Shown here: one piece after another, positions 2,791 to 47,902 of the stretch
How positions within the stretch are numbered: the first letter of the stretch is position 1
Layout of the letters: each line of letters opens with the position of its first letter
Virus record (IMG/VR): IMGVR_UViG_3300027963_000050
Reading direction: 5' to 3' (one strand)
Origin: a virus
Lineage: Duplodnaviria; Heunggongvirae; Uroviricota; Caudoviricetes
Length of the DNA stretch: 64,000 nucleotides
Notes under the pieces: model-generated
Told to the model about the DNA's origin: nothing
Seen by the model: the letters and a program-made list of their open reading frames with translations, nothing else
The model's database searches: none
Program-made: the position numbers and the translations under genes

Positions 2791-3167
2791 TACATTTCCC
2801 AAGCCGGGTTGGTAACTATCAATTTACCATCTTCAAGTCTTGGCAATTCACCTAAGTCGTGGTAGTCAGCATATTCAATATCTTCATCATAATATTTTTC
2901 ACCGTCAAATATTACAAAATGTCTATCATCATCTTCTTTACCTCTTTGACTGTGTCCTTGAGCTTTATAAGAATCTTTAGTTGCTCTATCCACAGATGGT
3001 TTTCCAAAAATATCAGACCACATTCCTTCAGTGATTGGTTTAGCATCACCAAGTTTAGAGTTTAATAATTTGTTAAAATTTTCAGTAACAACTTTCATAC
3101 CACCGGTATGTTGTTCACGGATTGAATTTTTTTCTTCTTCCGATAAATTATTTAATATATGTTTCAT
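2790..3167 (-). CDS. hypothetical protein (125 aa)
   Basis: ORF followed by a terminator hairpin. Confidence 0.5.
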   Translation of the reverse strand: MKHILNNLSEEEKNSIREQHTGGMKVVTENFNKLLNSKLGDAKPITEGMWSDIFGKPSVDRATKDSYKAQGHSQRGKEDDDRHFVIFDGEKYYDEDIEYADYHDLGELPRLEDGKLIVTNPAWEM

Positions 3168-3212
3168 AGTATAGTTTTAATATAAATATGCTCTAACTAC
3201 AAAAAAAAGGAA

Positions 3213-3722
3213 TTATACCTTACCAAACACTTCAAAGAATTTATCTTCATTACTTTTTTCAGGTGGGAATATAAATGACCGAACGTGGAAGGTAACAAAG
3301 TCCAGCTCACAATAAGTCATCTTGAAATAATCCGTTAACTCTTTCCCATATTCGTTCTTACTTTTTTTCATACCATACTTATCATCAAAATATAAATCAA
3401 TCCCAACCAAATATTTTTTAATCGGGTCAAATGTTTCAGGGTTATACATCACATTTTCTCTATATCCCGCAGAAACAACATCTTGAATCTCAGGGAACAT
3501 TTTTGTAACAACATCATTGAATGTTTTTGGGATTTCAATTGGCCGGTTATAAGGACTCTCAAAATTATTAGGGTCAACAGCATTACCACTTGAACCATAA
3601 GCGCCGTATGGATTAGCGTAAGCAGTTATTTGGTTATATAAAACATCATCTTCTGTTTCCATACTATCTCTATAATTGAATTGGTAATAATCTTTCAGGT
3701 AGATATTGTTCAGGACAAACAA
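3213..3722 (-). CDS. hypothetical protein (169 aa; may start at internal METEDDV, 3662)
   Basis: ORF. The first 20 codons overlap the 3' end of the neighbouring gene, so the internal Met may be the true start. Confidence 0.45.
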   Translation of the reverse strand: MFVLNNIYLKDYYQFNYRDSMETEDDVLYNQITAYANPYGAYGSSGNAVDPNNFESPYNRPIEIPKTFNDVVTKMFPEIQDVVSAGYRENVMYNPETFDPIKKYLVGIDLYFDDKYGMKKSKNEYGKELTDYFKMTYCELDFVTFHVRSFIFPPEKSNEDKFFEVFGKV

Positions 3723-4092
3723 TGGTTATACTATCAATGTAACCCGGATAATCCAATAAGTAACTCATATCCACCTCATAGGTTTCCCTATAGTTCAACA
3801 CAATATACGGAGTGGTAACCTTATTGTCAATTTTGATTCTAACCTTTTCAAAATCAAATTGCATAAAACGATATTCCCCATTAACCTCACCCATCAGTTT
3901 TACAACCGTTGAGGTTTCACTCTCAGAACTAACCGAACCGGCAATCAAAAAGAACGAACCCGATGTGTGAGTCTCCGTCACATCCTTATTCACCAACTGT
4001 CGTAAATAAATTTTATCTGTATGATAATTTTTGTACTCAACTCTACAACCAACCATCAATAACACAGCAAATAATAACAATAACTTTTTCAT
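3670..4092 (-). CDS. putative lipoprotein (MKKLLLLFAVLLMVGC signal)
   Basis: Track ORF 3670..4137. The internal Met at 4090-4092 gives a classic lipoprotein signal peptide with a Cys lipobox. Upstream lie a TAtcTTTG box (rc, about 4094-4118) and a terminator. Confidence 0.55.
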   Translation of the reverse strand: MKKLLLLFAVLLMVGCRVEYKNYHTDKIYLRQLVNKDVTETHTSGSFFLIAGSVSSESETSTVVKLMGEVNGEYRFMQFDFEKVRIKIDNKVTTPYIVLNYRETYEVDMSYLLDYPGYIDSITIVCPEQYLPERLLPIQL

Positions 4093-4119
4093 ATAACTTT
4101 TTTTCACAAAGATACAAAT

Positions 4120-4157
4120 AAAAAACCCCACAATCAAGTGGGGTTATATTTTTTTAA
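4120..4157. terminator. intrinsic terminator hairpin (CCCCAC-aatcaa-GTGGGG)
   Basis: A-tract, 6 bp GC stem, T-tract. Lies downstream of 4154..4459. Confidence 0.65.
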
Positions 4158-4459
4158 GATTGAATGAATTTAATCTCAACACCGTATTGATATTCAAACC
4201 AATCTTTAATAAATGGTCCGGCATCATCTTCATTGGGAAAATAAACTTTAGCAAAGTTGTCTAAGAAACTCTTATCAATATATAATCTACCATCGTCAGA
4301 GTCATACTCCATCATAATATCACTATCATAATCATCGTCGTGACCATTAGGGTAATAAATAATGATAAAGTTATCATAATCAGATGCACTACCGATAGAA
4401 CGATTTAAGTATTGAAGTTGAAGGTCCCGGAGTTTATTCTCTGTAATTATTATTTTCAT
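4154..4459 (-). CDS. leader-family-1 protein (MKIIITENK...), highly acidic
   Basis: MKIIITEN leader. Asp-rich (DDDYDSD). Confidence 0.6.
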   Translation of the reverse strand: MKIIITENKLRDLQLQYLNRSIGSASDYDNFIIIYYPNGHDDDYDSDIMMEYDSDDGRLYIDKSFLDNFAKVYFPNEDDAGPFIKDWFEYQYGVEIKFIQS

Positions 4460-4464
4460 ATTAG

Positions 4465-4794
4465 TTATTCCGACACAATTATTTCATTTAATATAATAGA
4501 CATATTTGGCAACCAATTTTCCAACCCATATTCAATGGATGAGATTACATTATAATAATCATCCCGGTCATAATCCCCATTTTGATAAATATTAACATAA
4601 ACTTTAATACCCGAATCTGAATCAATTCTATCAACCTCAATACGATTGATGGAATCAATCTCATACAATTCATCCATCTCACCCAAACCCCAATCTTCTG
4701 ACTCCTCTCTAAGATTATTTAATTCAGAGTTAATTTGAGATTGGATATGAGTTTTTAACTTTTCTATTTTATTTTCTGTGACTATAAACTTCAT
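4465..4794 (-). CDS. leader-family-1 protein (MKFIVTENK...), acidic
   Basis: Track ORF 4465..4818 begins at a TTG. The ATG at 4792-4794 gives the MKFIVTEN leader. Confidence 0.55.
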   Translation of the reverse strand: MKFIVTENKIEKLKTHIQSQINSELNNLREESEDWGLGEMDELYEIDSINRIEVDRIDSDSGIKVYVNIYQNGDYDRDDYYNVISSIEYGLENWLPNMSIILNEIIVSE

Positions 4795-4814
4795 ACAAAT
4801 AAATATCAACCATT

Positions 4815-4864
4815 CCAAAAAAAGGGGGCGGGGGGATTGACAAACGACCGGAGGGAGTTCGGGT
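4815..4864. repeat. GC-rich 47-bp repeat copy 1 (AAAAAAGGGGGCGGGGGGATTGACAAACGACCGGAGGGAGTTCGGGT)
   Basis: Near-identical to 5431..5480. GC island in an AT-rich genome, about 45 nt upstream of a minus-strand start codon. On the minus strand it reads TCAATCCCCCCGCCCCCTTTTTTG. Confidence 0.8.
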
Positions 4865-4875
4865 CCGGAAAGACA

Positions 4876-4912
4876 TAAAAAAACCCACTCGTTAAAGTGG
4901 GGTTATATTTTT
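4876..4912. terminator. intrinsic terminator hairpin (CCCACT-cgttaa-AGTGGG)
   Basis: A-tract/stem/T-tract at the stop of 4911..5402. Confidence 0.65.
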
Positions 4913-5402
4913 AATCATTAGGGAATGAAGTGTTTGATAATAATTTATTAGAAATAATCTTCTTACTAATTTCCTTAACATTAGGGGTGTCCAACCATTC
5001 AGGAAATTGGTTTTTCCCACCTACGTGCATCGTAATATAACCATTCTTATTATTGTTACCATTATATTCAAATGGCCATTTAACTTTAGCAAGTATTTGA
5101 GGATTAGTCGATTTATTTATAACAGATAAACTAAACTTCGGATTTTTTGCAAACTCGTGTTGTTCCTCTTTATTTTTCAAATAATAATGTCTATCAATAA
5201 CCTCTTTATGTTTTTCATAAAAACGGTCCAAAGTAGATTGCATTGCATTAATCAAATCGGGCATTTTATCTCTACTTAATGTTTCACCATCTTTAAGAAA
5301 ACCTCTAAAATCAAAATCATCAAATTCTTCATTTAATATTCTTTTCTCCAATTTAATATTGGATTCCTGAATATGTCTGATTTTACTATAACTCCTATTC
5401 AT
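4911..5402 (-). CDS. hypothetical protein (163 aa)
   Basis: ORF preceded (minus-strand sense) by GC-rich repeat copy 2. Confidence 0.5.
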   Translation of the reverse strand: MNRSYSKIRHIQESNIKLEKRILNEEFDDFDFRGFLKDGETLSRDKMPDLINAMQSTLDRFYEKHKEVIDRHYYLKNKEEQHEFAKNPKFSLSVINKSTNPQILAKVKWPFEYNGNNNKNGYITMHVGGKNQFPEWLDTPNVKEISKKIISNKLLSNTSFPND

Positions 5403-5430
5403 AATATTATTTTATTATAAATATATCGTT

Positions 5431-5480
5431 CCACAAAAAAGGGGGCGGGGGGATTGACAAACGACCGGAGGGAGTTCGGG
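5431..5480. repeat. GC-rich 47-bp repeat copy 2
   Basis: Same 47-mer as 4815..4864, ending at the stop codon of 5481..6500. Confidence 0.8.
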
Positions 5481-6500
5481 TTACGTCGGGTCCGTCAATA
5501 AGATACAAATTACCTTGCAACTATACTTCTTCTTTCCCGTACTCTTATGATTATACACATATTCCACAACGCGGGGGGAATCAAAATTAATATCTTTAAT
5601 TTTATCCTCAATACCTTCCAAATCATAGTTCCCATCAATGTTAATCACAAACACTCTTGGAACATTAGAAAACCTTGCCTCATCCCCATACATCATAAGA
5701 TACTTACATACCTCATACGGGTCATTAATGGAAGACTCCCTCCAATTATCACCATAATCCCTCTTATACTCATTAGTGGTACTCTTGGAAACCTTTTGGT
5801 CAAACCCCTCCCCATTAATAAAGAAATCAAGACCCTTCTTCTTACCAAAGGTGGGGATAATATCAATATTACTGTTGAACATCAAATACTCAATGTAGTC
5901 ATTTTTCAACGTACTAAAAATTTTTAAATAACAATACTGTTTGGTATCGACAGTGTGTTTTTTATACGAAGATTCAAATAACTCAGGATTATAAACAGAT
6001 GGAAAAGTAACAGTTCTTGTTACGTAAGAATCATAGTTATTGGCAACATACGGATACTCATATTCTAAATACCCATCATTACGATACATCTCTTGGTAAA
6101 CCTTGAATACCTGCTTAGCGTTCCGACAATTCTTATACTTGTCACTCAATACATACATATCTCTCAATACATCCCGACAACTTATATATTCCCAATGATT
6201 AACAATGTAATCTGTAACATCCCCAATCTTTGAAATGTCCAAAACCTCATCACCCTTACGGTTTTTCTTAACCGGAACATTCCACTTATCCTTCATAAGT
6301 CTTAAGAATTCCAACCCCCTGTTTAAGTTACCAAGTATAGACTTAACCTGTTCCCTCTCTATTCCATTCATTATATTCATATCATAAAGATAACACATTC
6401 CCCCTTTACAATCAATTTTTTTCCAGAAAATTTTTTCATATCTCATATTCCGATATACGATATGAACCCATCCGGAAATTTTCCGGATTACTATAAACAA
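5481..6500 (-). CDS. hypothetical protein (339 aa)
   Basis: Long ORF. No recognisable motif. Confidence 0.5.
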   Translation of the reverse strand: MFIVIRKISGWVHIVYRNMRYEKIFWKKIDCKGGMCYLYDMNIMNGIEREQVKSILGNLNRGLEFLRLMKDKWNVPVKKNRKGDEVLDISKIGDVTDYIVNHWEYISCRDVLRDMYVLSDKYKNCRNAKQVFKVYQEMYRNDGYLEYEYPYVANNYDSYVTRTVTFPSVYNPELFESSYKKHTVDTKQYCYLKIFSTLKNDYIEYLMFNSNIDIIPTFGKKKGLDFFINGEGFDQKVSKSTTNEYKRDYGDNWRESSINDPYEVCKYLMMYGDEARFSNVPRVFVINIDGNYDLEGIEDKIKDINFDSPRVVEYVYNHKSTGKKKYSCKVICILLTDPT

Positions 6501-6511
6501 TTTCCGGATAT

Positions 6512-6543
6512 AAAAAAACCCCTCCGTTGAAGAGGGGTCTTAA
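6512..6543. terminator. intrinsic terminator hairpin (CCCCTC-cgttgaa-GAGGGG)
   Basis: A-tract, GC stem, T-rich tail, downstream of 6544..6816. Confidence 0.65.
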
Positions 6544-6816
6544 TTATATATGTGAGTGGTCTAATCCGTACTTTGAATGAAGTAACTTCTTACCTTTTCT
6601 TTTTAGATGATTAAGTGATTCATCATCACCTTCACAATATCTTATTATAATGGTATCGTCATCATCAATATCTACGTGACCATTCATTTTATTCTCATCA
6701 CATTCCACCGATTGTATATCGTAAGAAATATCTTCGTCTGAATCATTTTCAGTTATCAATGGTTTAACATTACCCAATGTCGATTCCAATAATTGTTTAA
6801 ATCTATTAACTATCAT
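6544..6816 (-). CDS. small highly acidic protein (90 aa)
   Basis: ORF rich in D/E (DDDDTIIIRYCEGDDE). Confidence 0.45.
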   Translation of the reverse strand: MIVNRFKQLLESTLGNVKPLITENDSDEDISYDIQSVECDENKMNGHVDIDDDDTIIIRYCEGDDESLNHLKRKGKKLLHSKYGLDHSHI

Positions 6817-6969
6817 AATATTGTTTTATATATAAATATACACAACCCCACAAATGGGGGAAATTTTTTCCCAAAAATTTTTTTAGAATTTTCTGAACAA
6901 TTTACCCATAAAGTTTTTTTTAGACATACACATTGCAAAAGGGATTATCCCCCTATATGACACACAGAA

Positions 6970-7085
6970 CCCGGAGGGGAGGGAGGGGGGATACGTCCCC
7001 CACGTACAGGGGAGGGGTATAGGGGGTTATTATGGGGAGGGGTGACAAAAAAACCCCCCTGTAAAAGATGGGGGGAGAGGGTGTA
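6970..7085 (+). repeat. G-run tract (GGGG/GGGGGG x about 9) with embedded CCCCCC-N10-GGGGGG hairpin/terminator (7045-7078)
   Basis: Sequence cccggaggggagggaggggggatacgtcccccacgtacaggggaggggtatagggggttattatggggaggggtgac... in an otherwise 30% GC context. The hairpin lies downstream of the 7153..7614 stop. Confidence 0.6.
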
Positions 7086-7152
7086 TATTTAATATATCCA
7101 AATGATATAGGGAAAAGTTATCAACCTGACAGGGTGACAGTTGTTAATAACT

Positions 7153-7614
7153 TTATTTGGTTGTGGATATAAAGTTATCAACAGTTAATCTACGTGGGGT
7201 CTTCTGAGGTGGGTCCCCATCTTTGGCTAAGATTGATTTAAAGTCGTATGTTGTTTTCATATCTTGGGGGATGTGTTCGTATAGTTCCTCAAGGGTCTTC
7301 TCTAACTTCCTTCTTAGGTCAAACATAGTTGAGTCTTCTTGAGGGTATTCAAAGTAACCACCTAAGGCATAAGTCTTTGTATCTCTTTCATCAGGTTGGG
7401 GTTCAAGTAGTACCCTCTTCCAATAGGGGTTCATTCTTAGTCCGGAGTAATCTGATAGTTCAAAGAAGTTAACATATACATCTATCCCCGTCATTGTGTT
7501 ATACTTATTCCAATCCTTAGTTAGGGACCATCCTTTAACGAAGGGGTATTTCTTTGATAATGCTTTGACTGAGATGTCTATCCCTCTATGTTCTTTATTA
7601 GATAATTGTTCCAT
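7153..7614 (-). CDS. hypothetical protein (153 aa), GC-richer than neighbours
   Basis: ORF. Its codon composition is noticeably more GC-rich than surrounding genes. Confidence 0.45.
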   Translation of the reverse strand: MEQLSNKEHRGIDISVKALSKKYPFVKGWSLTKDWNKYNTMTGIDVYVNFFELSDYSGLRMNPYWKRVLLEPQPDERDTKTYALGGYFEYPQEDSTMFDLRRKLEKTLEELYEHIPQDMKTTYDFKSILAKDGDPPQKTPRRLTVDNFISTTK

Positions 7615-7642
7615 AGTAATAAATATATTGAAAATAAATTAA

Positions 7643-7692
7643 ATAATCCCCCTTTTTGTTTGGTGGTTAAATTTATTATTCGTACCTTTGTA
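7643..7692 (+). promoter_or_regulatory. Bacteroidetes-type promoter 1: AATCCCCC upstream element, TTTG(-33), 20 nt, TAccTTTG(-7)
   Basis: aataatccccctttttgtttggtggttaaatttattattcgTAccTTTGta. Confidence 0.5.
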
Positions 7693-7840
7693 TCACTGAA
7701 TTGGTAACCAACCCAACAGGGGGCGTACCGAGTGGTGGAAGAGTAGACTCCAACCTGCTTTATATTTTTTATATAAATCCCCCATCTTTACTGAGAATCT
7801 CATAATCAACCCTACGTGGTTTTGAAAAAATAGTGTAATG

Positions 7841-7886
7841 AATCCCCCCTTTTGTTGTGAATGTCATAATTTATTTATATCTTTGT
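7841..7886 (+). promoter_or_regulatory. Bacteroidetes-type promoter 2 (duplicate of promoter 1 architecture): AATCCCCCC, TTTG, 20 nt, TAtcTTTG
   Basis: aatccccccTTTTGttgtgaatgtcataatttatTTATAtcTTTGtac. Same element order as 7643..7692. Confidence 0.5.
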
Positions 7887-7930
7887 ACTTTGACGGTGGT
7901 TATCACCGGTAACTCTTAATATCTTAAACT

Positions 7931-8101
7931 ATGATTATTCTTATTGTACTACTATGTCTGTCCTTTGTCCTGTTATGTTTTGGTTTCATTCAGGTATTTG
8001 TTATCCCCACTCTATCACCTGATAGTAAGTTACTTAAGTGGTGGGAGAAACATATGGTTATGGAAGACCCCTATGACAGAGGTCCGAGATAAATTCCTCT
8101 A
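7931..8101 (+). CDS. possible small hydrophobic peptide (56 aa, MIILIVLLCLSFVLLCFGFIQVFVIPTLSPD...)
   Basis: ATG about 45 nt downstream of promoter 2. Predicted N-terminal TM helix. Below the ORF-track size cut-off. Overlaps the 3' end of the minus ORF 8058..8396. Confidence 0.25.
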
Positions 8102-8396
8102 CCTTCTTTAGGGAATGGTTTCTAATGTTCATTGACATATCGGTTAAATCATTCTCTGATAGTGGGGAGTCCATATGAATCTTCTCTATGATATCCCCCA
8201 TATCTACATTGGTTAGTAATAACACTTCCTGCTTTATTCTATTCCCGGACTTGAATAGTTCATATTCACAGGTACCCGAGAAGTTCCCATAGGAATAAAT
8301 CACACTATATTGTGTGTCATTTTGTCTTACTTCCGTATTAAAATCATTTAGGTACATAATTGTTGATAACTTTTTTATAAATATAGTTATTAACAT
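8058..8396 (-). CDS. hypothetical protein (112 aa)
   Basis: ORF in a gene-poor region. Confidence 0.35.
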   Translation of the reverse strand: MLITIFIKKLSTIMYLNDFNTEVRQNDTQYSVIYSYGNFSGTCEYELFKSGNRIKQEVLLLTNVDMGDIIEKIHMDSPLSENDLTDMSMNIRNHSLKKVEEFISDLCHRGLP

Positions 8397-8873
8397 TTAT
8401 GTTGTACATACTCTCAGGGGGGATTGTTAATAACTTTTTATGTTAAAATTCTTGATTTTGACAAAATGTCAGTCTCTTTTCACGATGGGGATAATCTTTT
8501 TCCCCACTTTTACCCCCATTTAACTTACACACTCTACCACTTTTTACCACCGGTTATGGTCCTGACGCTATGTAGAACGTCACTTTTTCCCCTCTGTAGG
8601 GGTCTGTAGGACCAATAAATTAGGTATATACGTTTCCCAGTAAATTATGTAAGTAATGGTACATTACGCGTGGGAACCGTTAGGTGTTAGAAAGGTATCT
8701 TCAACGACCACTTTAGTGGGGTATAATTAACCTCTAATGAACGAACTTAACGATTCATATATGGGACACCATAGAGACACAAAATACCATTAAAAGTTAT
8801 CTTTCATATCAACCTTGTGAGTTTTAAACTGACTACAGTGATACAAAACATAACTTATTATAACATCCACTAA

Positions 8874-8925
8874 TGTTCATTTAATTCCATTGTTCATTGC
8901 AAATGAACATCTATTAATAATGAAC
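8874..8925. promoter_or_regulatory. nested palindromic operator: TGTTCAT-N10-TGTTCATTGCAAATGAACA-N9-ATGAACA (4 half sites)
   Basis: Perfect 8-bp inverted repeat at 8891-8909 plus two symmetric outer half sites at 8874-8880 and 8919-8925. Confidence 0.55.
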
Positions 8926-9069
8926 ACCATACGGATTACTAATCGTGTCTGTAGTTTGTCCCCCTTCTTAATGGGGGGACGAAGTCCCCAATATAATGGG
9001 GGGAATATGTATACATTATTGAGTTTTTTATACATATGGAAGTTGACGTGTATAAATAAATGGATTTCT

Positions 9070-9175
9070 TATACATATACGTATTTATCCGTATATATAC
9101 GAAAATGATACGATATATATTATATTATACATTATGTGGTATATTGTGGGTTTTTGTATATTATAATGTACAAGA
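9070..9175. repeat. AT-rich tract with ATACG/CGTAT palindromes (CGTATATATACG at 9090-9101)
   Basis: tatacatatacgtatttatccgtatatatacgaaaatgatacgatatatattatattatacattatg. Possible DNA unwinding element or binding sites. Confidence 0.5.
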
Positions 9176-9224
9176 AAATAGTAAAGGATGAAACTATGAG
9201 TGAATTCCGGAGTGAAACGTAGGA

Positions 9225-9428
9225 CTATGAACGAATAGATTTATCGTTTAGTATTTTTCTATATATTGAGTGTAACCTTTTACTCTCCTGTTCTATCACA
9301 TCTTCCGCCATAAAAAGAAGTTGTTTTTCCTCCTCTGTCTCAAAACCTGTTCTTACAATACATAACGCCTCTAATAATGTTAATTCTTCCATAGTGTTAA
9401 TTATAAGTAATTCCCCCCGGTTAATCAA
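9225..9428 (-). CDS. small hypothetical protein (about 55-67 aa)
   Basis: Short ORF at the edge of the non-coding hub. May start at the internal MEELTLLEA. Confidence 0.3.
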   Translation of the reverse strand: MINRGELLIINTMEELTLLEALCIVRTGFETEEEKQLLFMAEDVIEQESKRLHSIYRKILNDKSIRS

Positions 9429-9438
9429 TAAAATGTTT

Positions 9439-9446
9439 TATCTTTG
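9439..9446 (+). promoter_or_regulatory. TAtcTTTG -7 box driving the 5-gene tandem array
   Basis: tttTAtcTTTGtatgatatttatattgatATGaaaATG. The ATG of the first array gene is about 19 nt downstream. Confidence 0.5.
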
Positions 9447-9464
9447 TATGATATTTATATTGAT

Positions 9465-9734
9465 ATGAAAATGATTATAAGTGAAAGTAGAATGTATAAT
9501 GTGTTTGTGAAATATATTGATTCACAATATGACTTATCATACAATATTAAAACCCGAGAATTTATAGATAAAAATAATAATATCTTTGGATATGTTGGGG
9601 GAGGAGTATTTTATTATGGTGGTTTATCTACGGAATTAAACTTGGAAGGGTTCTTTGGTAATAAAACAAATAAGATGTTAAAAATTTATTTGAGAGATAA
9701 ATTTCCTGATACACCTATATACTCTATTGAATAA
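9465..9734 (+). CDS. leader-family-1 tandem array member 1 (MKMIISESR...)
   Basis: Track ORF 9444..9734 starts at a TTG inside the promoter box. The ATG at 9465 gives the MKMIISES leader. Confidence 0.6.
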   Translation: MKMIISESRMYNVFVKYIDSQYDLSYNIKTREFIDKNNNIFGYVGGGVFYYGGLSTELNLEGFFGNKTNKMLKIYLRDKFPDTPIYSIE

Positions 9735-9746
9735 TCCCCACGCTTT

Positions 9747-10094
9747 ATGAAATTGATTATAACTGAAAGTAGAAGAAATGATGTCGTAACCAAATGGTTG
9801 GATAGGAAGTATAGTAATTTAATACCAAGACAATATAGTGTATTTACCTCATTTGATGATGAATCAGGTAATAGTGTGTTTTCATATAGTTACGGAGATA
9901 TTACAATTGTAAGTCCTGACCTACAATACGATTTATTTAATATGTTTAACTTAAAAAGATATGACTTAAATCAAATCATTAAACCTTGGGTTGAACAAAC
10001 ATATGGTATAGATGTTGATTTGGTTCAGTACACTACTTGGCATTGTAATAACTGTGGTATGTATCATCCTACTAAACATCATATTATAGAATAA
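9747..10094 (+). CDS. leader-family-1 tandem array member 2 (MKLIITESRRNDVVTKWLD...)
   Basis: Preceded by the conserved junction TAATCCCCACGCTTTATG. Paralog of 10107..10421 (shared VVTKWLD). Confidence 0.65.
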   Translation: MKLIITESRRNDVVTKWLDRKYSNLIPRQYSVFTSFDDESGNSVFSYSYGDITIVSPDLQYDLFNMFNLKRYDLNQIIKPWVEQTYGIDVDLVQYTTWHCNNCGMYHPTKHHIIE

Positions 10095-10106
10095 TCCCCA
10101 CGCCTT

Positions 10107-10421
10107 ATGAAATTAATAATAACTGAAAATAAAATGAGTAGTGTTGTAACCAAATGGTTGGATAATAGCTATGGTGATTTAAGAAAGTCCGCATCTCCTA
10201 TGAATTTTAGATTCATCCACTACAAAGATAAAAATAATCAGACCGTCTTTTTGTTTAATCGTGACACCGGTACAGTTACCATAACTAATAAATCGGTATA
10301 CCATTATTTGAAAGATATGTTTGGTCTTAGTGGTTATGAGTTAAATGTTATCTTAATCCCTTGGTTTATAGAAAGATATAATCTACACGTTGAGAAAGTC
10401 CAATATAGTGACTTACATTAA
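10107..10421 (+). CDS. leader-family-1 tandem array member 3 (MKLIITENKMSSVVTKWLD...)
   Basis: Junction TAATCCCCACGCCTTATG. Confidence 0.65.
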   Translation: MKLIITENKMSSVVTKWLDNSYGDLRKSASPMNFRFIHYKDKNNQTVFLFNRDTGTVTITNKSVYHYLKDMFGLSGYELNVILIPWFIERYNLHVEKVQYSDLH

Positions 10422-10436
10422 TCCCCACGCCTTATT

Positions 10437-10739
10437 ATGAAACTAATTATTACAGAGAGTAAATTTTATAAGATGTTCGCCAAGTTTATGGACGACTATT
10501 TCGGTTTAACATATAAGGCCGTTAAGAAAAAATATTATGATGTTGACGCAATTGAATATATCTTTACAACCAAAGATGGTGATACGTTTGGTAGGTCATT
10601 TGAAAATGATACTTTCACGTATAGTTATGATAAGTATATTATAATTGATTCTTTCTTTGGTGATAAAACAGATGAACTATTATTACAATACCTTAATGAT
10701 AAATTTGGAGATTCTGTTAGAATTAGAAGAATATCTTAA
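10437..10739 (+). CDS. leader-family-1 tandem array member 4 (MKLIITESKFYKMF...)
   Basis: Junction TAATCCCCACGCCTTATTATG. Confidence 0.65.
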   Translation: MKLIITESKFYKMFAKFMDDYFGLTYKAVKKKYYDVDAIEYIFTTKDGDTFGRSFENDTFTYSYDKYIIIDSFFGDKTDELLLQYLNDKFGDSVRIRRIS

Positions 10740-10752
10740 TCCCCCACGCTTT

Positions 10753-11187
10753 ATGAAAGTAATTATAACTGAAAGTAGAATAGAAGAAATAATACAAAAA
10801 TCCTTATCCATCGTATTTGGTGGGTTTGAGGATATAACTTGGAGTTGGGCCGACTTTAATTGTGGTTGGGGTGTTTGTTGTGATATATATGCCGTTGGAT
10901 TTGTTTTACCTAATACTGACCACGATGAATATATCTTTAAGTTGGCTGATGGTAAACACTATGATGATGATGGAGATTACCCGGAAGAAATGAAAGGTGA
11001 ACTACCTGAAGAATGTTATAACCAACCTGATTTATATGACCCCCGATTTGATACAATCGTATTCTATGAAGAGTATGCTGAGAAATTGGAAAACTTCTTG
11101 GGTCCGTTAGATAAAGTTAAAACCCCATTGTTAAATGTCCTAAATGAAATGTTTGGTATGGATGCTAAGGTAATTATTGTTATATAA
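10753..11187 (+). CDS. leader-family-1 tandem array member 5 (MKVIITESRIEE...)
   Basis: Track ORF 10645..11187. The ATG at 10753 follows the conserved junction TAATCCCCCACGCTTTATG and gives the leader. Confidence 0.65.
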   Translation: MKVIITESRIEEIIQKSLSIVFGGFEDITWSWADFNCGWGVCCDIYAVGFVLPNTDHDEYIFKLADGKHYDDDGDYPEEMKGELPEECYNQPDLYDPRFDTIVFYEEYAEKLENFLGPLDKVKTPLLNVLNEMFGMDAKVIIVI

Positions 11188-11689: not shown

Positions 11690-12109
11690 TTACTTATTGA
11701 TTAATATCTCAACCAATTCATCAAGTATTTGTCCCGGTAAACTTTCATATTTAACATAATAGTCGCCTAAGTGACCATTAAACTCATCCTCATATCTACT
11801 AATATCTACACTCGTTAGACCTAACCATTCTATTTGATGTTCCTCCCCATCTTCATCACTATAATGAAGTGGTTCTTCATCTATTTCTGTCATACCAAAC
11901 CCACTAGCATCACCTAATTCTCTCACTCTTTCTTTAATGTAGTTGACCTTATCAATCTCCTTTAAGTAGGGCTCAATCATATAATAATTTCCCGCCAATT
12001 TAATGGCGTTGGAGACTCCCATCTTATCAATCATTGTTCTGATGGTGTCTTCCTTTTTATCTTCACTGATTAAGGTGCTAATTCTTTGTATGTTTTCTAT
12101 TAGGTTCAT
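11690..12109 (-). CDS. leader-family-2 protein (MNLIENIQRISTLI...)
   Basis: N-terminal MNLxENIxRI leader with the 'ggttcat' start context. Acidic. Confidence 0.55.
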   Translation of the reverse strand: MNLIENIQRISTLISEDKKEDTIRTMIDKMGVSNAIKLAGNYYMIEPYLKEIDKVNYIKERVRELGDASGFGMTEIDEEPLHYSDEDGEEHQIEWLGLTSVDISRYEDEFNGHLGDYYVKYESLPGQILDELVEILINK

Positions 12110-16204: not shown

Positions 16205-16264
16205 ACTATAAGTTTATATAATAAATATAAAAAAAAAGAGAATATTACTTCCTCTCGTTTAATT

Positions 16265-23223: not shown

Positions 23224-23527
23224 TTTTCATCATTTTACCTTCTAAACCCCAATCTGAAGCGTATTCATCAAGTTCAAGACCAAACATAGGGTTAAGTTGA
23301 GTCTTTATTTTCTTTAACGTATAACTTGGACTGTGAGTCATTTTACCGTCAATAAAACCAATATGTATTTTGGTTCTACTTATAATATTTTCACCTCGTT
23401 TGTTCTCACCACTAGCCAATTGAATTTGTTTTGTTTCAAAGGTCACTTTTCCCACCATAGGAAATGTAGTGAGAATATACTTCTCAATTAAATCATTTCT
23501 TCGTTCTTCTTTAATTAATATCTTCAT
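23204..23527 (-). CDS. leader-family-1 protein (MKILIKEERRND...)
   Basis: Leader variant. TAATG junction. Confidence 0.55.
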   Translation of the reverse strand: MKILIKEERRNDLIEKYILTTFPMVGKVTFETKQIQLASGENKRGENIISRTKIHIGFIDGKMTHSPSYTLKKIKTQLNPMFGLELDEYASDWGLEGKMMKNENNNI

Positions 23528-26664: not shown

Positions 26665-26680
26665 ATCTATAAATATAACA

Positions 26681-30534: not shown

Positions 30535-30593
30535 ACCTATAAATATACCGGAACTAAATTATTGGTGTGTATATTTATTGTTAAATATTAATT

Positions 30594-35598: not shown

Positions 35599-35638
35599 AT
35601 TCTTGTATTCTATTTAATAAATATGTATATTTATAGTT

Positions 35639-47859: not shown

Positions 47860-47902
47860 AATAAATCTTTTAGTTATAAATATACGGAAAATAAAAAAGA
47901 GG

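Follow-up and report, generated by a model that had tools for sequence, protein, structure and literature searches.

In T4-type phages, promoter-early stem-loops (PeSLs) are mobile regulatory cassettes (Arbiol et al. 2010, PMC2839356; Comeau et al. 2014, PMC4122927). They are repeated intergenic motifs of ~50-100 bp that combine a terminator with a promoter and lie upstream of ORFans in hyperplastic regions (PMC2839356). PeSLs mark the indel and replacement junctions of close relatives, and an ORFan between two copies is an excisable unit (PMC2839356, PMC4122927). They carry a sigma-70 consensus promoter and a stable stem-loop, with the -35/-10 boxes and an AT-rich upstream region conserved, and mini-circles have been shown (PMC2839356). 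Here we describe a repeated element in a stretch of 64,000 nucleotides from a virus of the class Caudoviricetes (IMG/VR record IMGVR_UViG_3300027963_000050; the whole stretch is referred to as the window). This AT-rich DNA (~31% GC) contains the 47-mer AAAAAAGGGGGCGGGGGGATTGACAAACGACCGGAGGGAGTTCGGGT twice on the plus strand, at 4818-4864 and 5435-5481, with an offset of 617 bp. A sequence-only reading had picked out this pair as the upstream element of two promoters; the repeat is real and exact, but its coordinates had been placed 3-4 nt off and its spacing given as 616 bp. No third copy was found in the window at up to 3 mismatches, where chance expectation is also none. Three further systems are compared below. 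In T4 middle promoters, a 9-bp MotA box at -30 replaces the -35 box and sigma is appropriated by AsiA/MotA. The integron attC site, next to which lies a tyrosine-recombinase integrase, is an imperfect palindrome in which structure, not sequence, is conserved. The variable internal-protein (IP) locus of T-even phages, attributed to Repoila and colleagues in 1994, reportedly has a shared promoter and an N-terminal capsid-targeting leader.

The 47-mer is a pair of copies of an element of ~45 bp that a lineage of uncultured large phages has conserved, and the single gene between the two copies is a cassette that related phages have exchanged. The interpretation we favor, with a probability of roughly 0.55, is a PeSL-like regulatory cassette: a portable module, specific to phages, that lies upstream of promoters and doubles as a recombination junction. 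The element would work like a PeSL while being a different element. As with PeSLs, a repeated intergenic motif lies upstream of ORFans (173 instances, with an open reading frame (ORF) 15-70 nt downstream in 77%), it stands at junctions between close relatives (L004, L006, L007, and L008, with breakpoints at window 4875, 4818, and 5481), and a single ORFan is flanked by two copies. The flanking genes also resemble those of T4 hyperplastic regions (PMC2839356) in having no significant Pfam or PHROG family match, with marginal hits only at E above 0.001. Unlike a PeSL, the element has no sigma-70 core, its conserved part being a GC-rich block upstream of TATATTTA boxes (class B) or TAnnTTTG boxes (class A); it contains no conserved stem-loop of its own, although a separate terminator precedes it in roughly half of the cases; and the core promoter that follows is one of these two non-sigma-70 types. 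The phage lineage is moreover unrelated to T4, and neither a megablast search with window 3000-9000 nor a tblastn search with a 585-aa window protein found anything in 50,697 phage records.

Anatomy, conservation, and orientation of the element

All local genes are on the minus strand, and the order is 321-aa gene, copy 2, 163-aa gene, terminator, copy 1, and 109-aa gene. The features are listed in gene direction.

5481-6446, minus strand: 321-aa ORFan upstream of copy 2
5435-5481, minus strand: copy 2 of the 47-mer, with box 1 at 5480-5462, C-tract at 5452-5441, and T-run at 5440-5435
5418-5425, minus strand: class B box TATATTTA, beginning 15 nt past the C-tract end and lying 15 nt before ATG 5402
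4911-5402, minus strand: 163-aa ORFan with the leader MNRSYSKIRHIQESN..., between the two copies, the exchanged cassette
4884-4901, minus strand: intrinsic terminator of the 163-aa gene, CCCACTTTAACGAGTGGG and then T7, directly upstream of copy 1
4818-4864, minus strand: copy 1 of the 47-mer, an exact repeat that fits the family consensus from 173 instances, with box 1 CCCGAACTCCCTCCGGTCG at 4863-4845, spacer TTTGTCAAT at 4844-4836, C-tract CCCCCCGCCCCC at 4835-4824, and T-run at 4823-4817
4800-4807, minus strand: class B promoter-like box GATATTTA, beginning 16 nt past the C-tract end and lying 5 nt before ATG 4794
4465-4794, minus strand: 109-aa ORFan with the leader MKFIVTENK..., downstream of copy 1

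Copy 1 is placed between the intrinsic terminator at 4884-4901 and ATG 4794, and copy 2 adjoins the stop of the 5481-6446 gene, its first base overlapping the TAA codon (5481-5483), and precedes ATG 5402. AATCC begins 44 and 53 nt ahead of ATGs 4794 and 5402, respectively, and the repeat ends 23 and 32 nt ahead of them.

When each half of the repeat was used as an exact search pattern, 23 and 20 stretches of viral contigs (6-322 kb) were recovered, and at least 119 metagenome contigs carry the element. The general layout is box 1 (CCGRACTCCCTYCGGTCG), a spacer of N7-9 ending in TCAAAT or TCAAT, the C-tract CCCCCCGCCCCC, and a T-run; in gene direction the family consensus of box 1 is (A)CC-CGRAC-TCCCTYC-GGTCG and the T-run is T4-10, mostly T6-8. 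When loci were pooled, 173 distinct contexts were obtained among the matches listed, and box 1 was present in 94% of them. The C-tract and several box 1 positions are invariant in 41 aligned sequences with unalignable flanks, and the element precedes 81 unrelated downstream-region clusters on contigs from many samples. Conservation so far beyond the surroundings fits recognition by a specific factor. A scan of bacterial and archaeal genomes, covering one genome per species, returned seven matches, six of which were unrelated C-tract matches in GC-richer contigs. The seventh, in a bacterial bin, was a full element on a 2.5-kb contig of 31.6% GC, a composition like that of the window. Because this window-like contig carried the only full copy in the scan, the element is phage-specific in these collections: across the viral, metagenome, and bacterial/archaeal scans it was restricted to phage sequence, and an origin in host genomes was rejected. 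A literature search did not find the box 1 sequence in the papers it covered.

Variation within the family was also observed. A degenerate second copy directly follows the element in L011 (4259, minus strand) and L054 (1133, plus strand), reading CCGACC..TTCGGTCGG..ATATCCCCCC. Box 1 alone survives in L161 and the C-tract alone in the downstream promoter of L004, TAATCCCCCCGCTTTTG; since some relatives keep only one half, box 1 and the C-tract can occur apart. Among homologous copies ahead of the 163-aa gene family (window 4817-4823 and 5435-5440; L019, L055, L061, L106, and L142), the T-run varies from T6 to T10, which suggests slippage that alters the distance from the C-tract to the promoter box.

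The position of the element relative to genes is regular. In all 70 of 70 multi-copy loci, the copies share one orientation. A first-ATG ORF of at least 60 aa begins on the same strand 15-70 nt past the T-run in 117 of 151 instances (77%); within these loci, randomly chosen positions give 9.9% and the other side of the element 15%. This bears out the proposal of a promoter-upstream repeat that faces the same way as the gene after it. On the upstream side, 133 of 151 instances have a co-oriented ORF ending at a distance of 20-130 nt. The interval from the upstream stop to the C-tract falls into one of two ranges, 28-45 nt where box 1 touches the stop (copy 2) and 52-104 nt where a terminator hairpin intervenes (copy 1); a separate intrinsic terminator stands directly upstream in roughly half of the cases, copy 1 included. 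Of 73 pairs of consecutive copies, separated by 376-4366 bp, 37 have a single ORF between them and 24 have two.

Searches for a structure in the element were negative. A conserved hairpin was rejected: the candidate 8-bp stem, CGACCGGA/TCCGGTCG, is perfect in a few copies and its 62.5% pairing equals that of shuffles, while its sole variable pair (A-U 14, G-C 6, G-U 6, unpaired 15) acts as two independent sites. RNAalifold gave no consensus pairs or structure, single-sequence folds of both strands had z-scores of -1.1 to 0.06, no better than shuffles, comparison with Rfam gave no match at the gathering threshold or at E up to 1, and a tRNA search was negative as well. As for a guide or antisense partner, no word of the element of at least 11 nt occurs elsewhere in the 64-kb window on either strand. 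Because there is no covariation, consensus fold, Rfam match, or guide-like partner, the element most likely acts as double-stranded sequence.

Several known identities were discarded. The element is not an intrinsic terminator: the C-tract ahead of its T-run is unpaired, the closest candidate stem is more than 20 nt farther upstream and does not covary, and a terminator scan reports only the separate hairpin at 4884-4901. A G-quadruplex or i-motif was rejected, since several box 1 variants are without G-runs and a four-tract G motif is therefore not conserved. Some copies read GTTTCAATCC; a solitary CRISPR-repeat-like unit was rejected on its variable spacer and the lack of a repeat-type hairpin. 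In RNA-guided transcription by dCas12f-sigmaE, a guide is complementary to an upstream site and the dCas12f and sigmaE genes are linked (Hoffmann et al. 2025, PMC12259090). A target of this kind was rejected, with no partner of 11 nt or more in the window and no Cas12f, TnpB, or sigma among the Pfam families listed (25 of the 42 found in the window, a scope that applies to the Pfam statements below).

Promoter-like boxes and mosaic junctions at the element

Two promoter-like classes follow the element. Class A is of the Bacteroidetes type, TTTG, 19-21 nt, and TAnnTTTG (usually TATCTTTG), and was tested as the primary-sigma promoter with -33 TTTG, -7 TAnnTTTG, and a spacer of 19-21. Class B is [TG]ATATTTA, the TATATTTA box, followed after 5 nt or ~15 nt by ATG. 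A class B box comes after the element in 102 of 173 instances and begins 14-19 nt past the C-tract in 94 of these 102; TAnnTTTG takes its place in 31 instances, where the class A -7 box begins ~11-15, 22-23, 31, 40-42, or more nt past the C-tract. Within the window, 17 of 33 class B boxes precede a co-oriented start by no more than 30 nt, 8 of these by exactly 5 nt, compared with 4 of 25 for the reverse complement of the word. These counts suggest that class B may be a phage promoter class giving leaderless or very short-leader mRNAs; the box is reminiscent of the T4 late TATAAATA box. Class B boxes elsewhere in the window (for example, 2726-2733, 7620-7627, 16222-16229, 26670-26677, 30540-30547, 35626-35633, and 47877-47884) stand 5 nt (or 14-21 nt) ahead of many starts, putative virion protein genes included.

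The TTTG word had been read as a -33-like element at the two copies. There the T-run and the following G do form TTTG, 8-10 nt before the class B box, no TAnnTTTG precedes the ATG at either 47-mer-linked promoter, and the 19-21-nt spacing from TTTG is absent. Because TTTG is only 8-10 nt before the TATATTTA box, it is not the -33 element of these promoters; the C-tract, not TTTG, would occupy about -29 to -41. Sigma-70-type matches are not enriched in 4300-8000 (15 compared with 16.9 in shuffles). The element had also been taken as the mark of one promoter class, a view that the wider survey does not sustain: in relatives it precedes either class, and both classes are widespread without it. 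The element is therefore an optional upstream module and not a core promoter. T4 middle promoters are alike in having a phage sequence at the -35/-33 place, a host-like downstream box, and use at a subset of promoters only. They differ from the element in length (9 bp compared with ~45 bp), and the distance from the element to canonical promoters varies; no MotA or AsiA homologue was identified here among the Pfam families listed.

The junctions between relatives map to the same element. An identical 163-aa protein is found on 11 contigs with differing neighbors. L004 is 99.96% identical to window 13000-4875 and diverges just before copy 1, past which it has a different gene with a short AATCCCCCCGC-TTTTG promoter. 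The homology block of L006 corresponds to window 5481-4818 (98.3%), bounded by the outer ends of copies 2 and 1; L006 is without the 321-aa gene upstream and the two genes at 4154-4794 downstream, and its homology returns at 4103. The blocks of L007 and L008 correspond to window 5481-4875. Thus, the 321-aa gene is absent from L006, L007, and L008, and the 109-aa gene with 4154-4459 is absent in L006 and replaced in L004, L007, and L008, while the terminator at 4884-4901 is kept along with the 163-aa gene in all four. An identical right half (T-run, promoter, and 163-aa gene) is joined to four box 1/spacer variants, which have TCCGG or TTCGG in box 1 and TTTGTC, TATTCA, or ATTTTA in the spacer. 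Four left halves on one right half therefore indicate crossovers inside the invariant AATCCCCCCGCCCCC-T run. Several metagenome contigs with neighboring genes, the 321-aa gene included, end in or beside the element, as expected for a repeat that varies within populations. An empty-site allele, in which a single element separates the 321-aa and 109-aa genes, was not found among contigs carrying those proteins. The sequence-only reading had named its own counter-case, namely that the 47-mer belongs to a longer mobile repeat found in many copies without regard to where genes lie. The element is indeed longer, many-copy, and recombination-prone, but its position relative to genes is strictly kept, and for this reason the counter-case does not hold.

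In the mechanism that we propose from motif positions and conservation, the module of ~45 bp (box 1, TCAAAT spacer, CCCCCCGCCCCC, and T-run) would follow the end of a small gene, or its terminator, and precede the core promoter of the gene after it. Transcription would start a few nucleotides after the TATATTTA box, placing the C-tract at about -29 to -41 and box 1 at about -50 to -68, and the 5-nt form of class B would give a nearly leaderless transcript. The double-stranded module would most likely be bound by a sequence-specific factor (a phage activator, a repressor, or a sigma-like specificity subunit), through which promoters that are otherwise independent would come under a shared control. 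The anatomy, conservation, orientation, spacing, and mosaic breakpoints are observed; where transcription starts, whether a factor binds, and in which direction regulation runs are what we infer here. Because its core is nearly invariant, the module would also provide related phages with a patch of homology for exchanging, inserting, and deleting ORFan cassettes of one or two genes.

Weighing the interpretations

The notion of a promoter-upstream, probably factor-recognized element is carried by position, orientation, and conservation beyond the surroundings, but the -33 assignment and the generality of the AATCCCCC motif that came with it were not upheld. A number of observations count against the PeSL-like module. 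Some element instances in L019, L034, and L018 are followed by a terminator or by no gene. The varying distance from the C-tract to TAnnTTTG speaks against a fixed -35-like role at class A promoters, and both promoter classes occur many times without the element. The lengths of the T-run and the spacer are negatively correlated over instances (r = -0.41), but not significantly over distinct spacers, and selection on the total distance from the C-tract to the box was rejected accordingly. Start-site positions come from motif spacing only, and no candidate for the binding protein emerged, with no sigma factor or RNA polymerase among the Pfam families listed. In addition, conservation could be maintained by gene conversion among the copies and not by selection for binding.

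A rather improbable alternative is that a phage-specific RNA polymerase or sigma-like factor uses the element as a complete promoter in its own right, with the TATATTTA or TAnnTTTG box being a second, independent promoter. Its layout would be T7-like, with a long recognition block, an AT-rich melting T-run, and initiation at the next purine. A nearly invariant block of ~45 bp, present in few copies per genome and strictly co-oriented with genes, agrees with this, and the varying distance to canonical promoters is easier to explain if the element works alone. Immediately past the T-run, 68% of the 173 instances have G and 88% have a purine, whereas G follows only 25% of other T-runs in the same loci. 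This G fits either a TTTG word or an initiating purine and so keeps the alternative alive, but it could equally belong to TTTG, the Bacteroidetes -33 word. A T-run of 4 to 10 would, moreover, move a fixed start site, and the 14-19 nt to the TATATTTA box in 94 cases would be left unexplained save by shared ancestry. No polymerase or sigma was present among the Pfam families listed from the 101 window ORFs, with ~150 kb of genome lying outside the window. Less probable still is a role as RNA in read-through polycistrons, as a processing site, a C-rich Rho-loading or insulating signal, or a small-RNA target. In about half of consecutive pairs the upstream stop lies 28-45 nt before the C-tract with no terminator between, so that read-through transcripts would contain the element; its sense strand is C-rich and G-poor; and the invariant GGGGGCG of a nearby RNA-like element is complementary to CGCCCCC. 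This complementarity, however, is only 7 nt long and the GGGGG is predicted to pair internally within the RNA-like element. The other half of the cases has an intrinsic terminator directly upstream, and there the element would rarely be transcribed from upstream. Rho-loading sites are set by composition, whereas single positions are invariant here across 41 sequences, and the structural searches above gave no conserved structure, covariation, or Rfam match.

We consider it unlikely to a still greater degree that the element is a dedicated site-specific recombination site for cassette attachment, like attC/attI, with a phage recombinase cutting in the C-tract. Co-oriented arrays of one- or two-gene cassettes bounded by the element, and crossovers that map between the spacer and the T-run, would suit such a site, and the likeness to integrons extends to single-gene cassettes with a recurrent site at each boundary. 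An attC site proper was nevertheless rejected: what is conserved is sequence and not structure, no attC-type imperfect palindrome is kept, no integrase or recombinase family is among the window Pfam hits, and every cassette has its own promoter. Homologous recombination on an identical patch of 20-45 bp plus promoter and leader codons, the mechanism put forward for PeSLs (PMC2839356), explains the breakpoints. By far the least credible account is a recent local duplication of a functionless intergenic segment. The two window copies are 100% identical over 47 bp, as a duplication would have it, but as a sole account it is contradicted by the 173 distinct contexts, the 81 unrelated downstream-region clusters from many samples, and the combination of invariant core columns with unalignable flanks. 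Beyond the PeSL-like module lies a more far-reaching proposal, which we regard as speculative and improbable to about the same degree as the complete promoter: the element may be the site of a phage specificity factor (MotA-type appropriation or a phage polymerase), doubling as the junction of an integron-like array that trades leader-tagged ORFans, possibly virion-delivered anti-defense effectors, in phages whose hosts are probably Bacteroidota.

Protein leaders, the AATCCCCC motif, and significance

Both genes downstream of the 47-mers encode recurrent leaders, MKFIVTENK... and MNRSYSKIRHIQESN..., and these leader peptides were likewise not found by the literature search. With the MNRS-type leader left out of the scoring, leader motifs are present in 55 of 141 (39%) element-downstream proteins compared with 21% of background ORFs, an enrichment of about twofold. 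A targeting signal, for example, for virion packaging, is a conjecture. As in the T-even IP locus, different cargo ORFs share an upstream regulatory sequence and a short N-terminal leader, and homology at the cassette 5' end could drive exchange. About 18 of 101 window ORFs start with MK[IFLV]IITE[SN], and other leaders read NLxENIxRI..MMGL, NRFKQLLES, and MNRSYSKIRHIQESN..LEKR.L.E. Leader ORFs start, for example, at 1076, 4459, 4794, 9465, 9747, 10107, 10755, 22831, and 23223; further starts are at 23527, 23850, 29819, and 38227, and also at 12109, 14535, 19780, and 5402. In a protein database, the MNRSYSKIRHIQESN..LEKR.L.E leader is fused to PG_binding_1, SLT lytic transglycosylase, and thioredoxin C-terminal domains.

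The motif AATCCCCC had been proposed as a general promoter-proximal signal and, at two plus-strand sites, as the head of promoters. It occurs 7 times in the window compared with 2.3 expected, a count reached by 2 of 100 shuffles, and all occurrences lie within 4831-10745. At 7645 and 7841, it stands just upstream of TTTG ... TAnnTTTG, and its place at the head of these two promoters is confirmed. The spacing from TTTG to TAnnTTTG is that of class A at 7659-7690 and approximately so at 7851-7885.

7645-7690, plus strand: class A promoter, with AATCCCCC at 7645-7652, TTTG at 7659-7662, a 20-nt spacer, and TACCTTTG at 7683-7690
7841-7885, plus strand: class A promoter, with AATCCCCCC at 7841-7849, TTTTGTTG at 7850-7857, and TATCTTTG at 7878-7885

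The AATCCCCC block at 7841 is kept in most relatives, and that at 7645 is an insertion missing from many of them. A further occurrence, at 7776, falls inside a conserved non-coding RNA-like element, and one at 10738 overlaps a stop codon 9 nt ahead of an internal start. With 7 occurrences compared with 2.3, one of them in the RNA-like element and one not conserved, the generality of the motif is weak. The occurrence at 10738 also bears on the gene call at 10672, whose probable true start is 10755 (MKVIITESR), 9 nt after the motif. It lies in a tandem array at 9465-11187 (plus strand) of four or five small paralogous genes with MK[MLV]II[ST]ES.. starts and repeated junction sequences.

The RNA-like element at 7690-7800 (plus strand) is an ORF-free conserved segment of ~110 nt that follows the class A promoter at 7659-7690. 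More than 30 related loci with differing neighboring genes share it at 72-91% identity, and it contains the invariant blocks GGGGGCG and GGAAGAGTAGACTCC. A covariance model found one copy per locus in 26 related loci and the window (27 hits), with 98.9% of cells paired and three covarying pairs (UA/CG, CG/UA, and CG/AU); no Rfam or tRNA match was obtained, and the element is a candidate for a new phage small RNA. Its predicted GGGGG:CCCCC helix, of which the AATCCCCC at 7776 forms the 3' strand, is invariant and therefore without covariation support. Downstream of the promoter at 7841-7885, a 5' leader with a conserved hairpin, CGGTGnTTATCACCG (7895-7910), is followed by an ORF for a 53-aa hydrophobic peptide (7931-8092, plus strand), an arrangement kept in most related loci. 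At 6864-7153, a non-coding segment has dense G-runs on the plus strand (C-runs on the gene strand), such as CCGGAGGGGAGGGAGGGGGGAT. It is conserved at 73-79% in L001, L006, and L007, folds no better than shuffles, and shares the words ATCCCCCC, CTCCCTCC, and TCCGG with the 47-mer in a different order. In addition, six near-palindromic words, GTTAWTAAC or TGTTGATAACTTT, lie at 7115-7187 and 8357-8448 in the large intergenic regions flanking divergent promoters. Some of them match TTATCAACA, one mismatch from the DnaA-box consensus, and they could be operator sites or a replication origin.

Unless a factor that binds it or a temporal class can be demonstrated, the element has modest practical value. 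If it works as we suggest, the idea of the mobile regulatory cassette would extend past the T4-type phages to unrelated, uncultured, large AT-rich phages with Bacteroidetes-type promoters. The locus also offers two sequence handles, the 45-bp GC-rich module and the promoter-like TATATTTA-N5-ATG box, which could aid the study of phage transcription control and help to locate fast-evolving accessory regions in metagenomic phage genomes.

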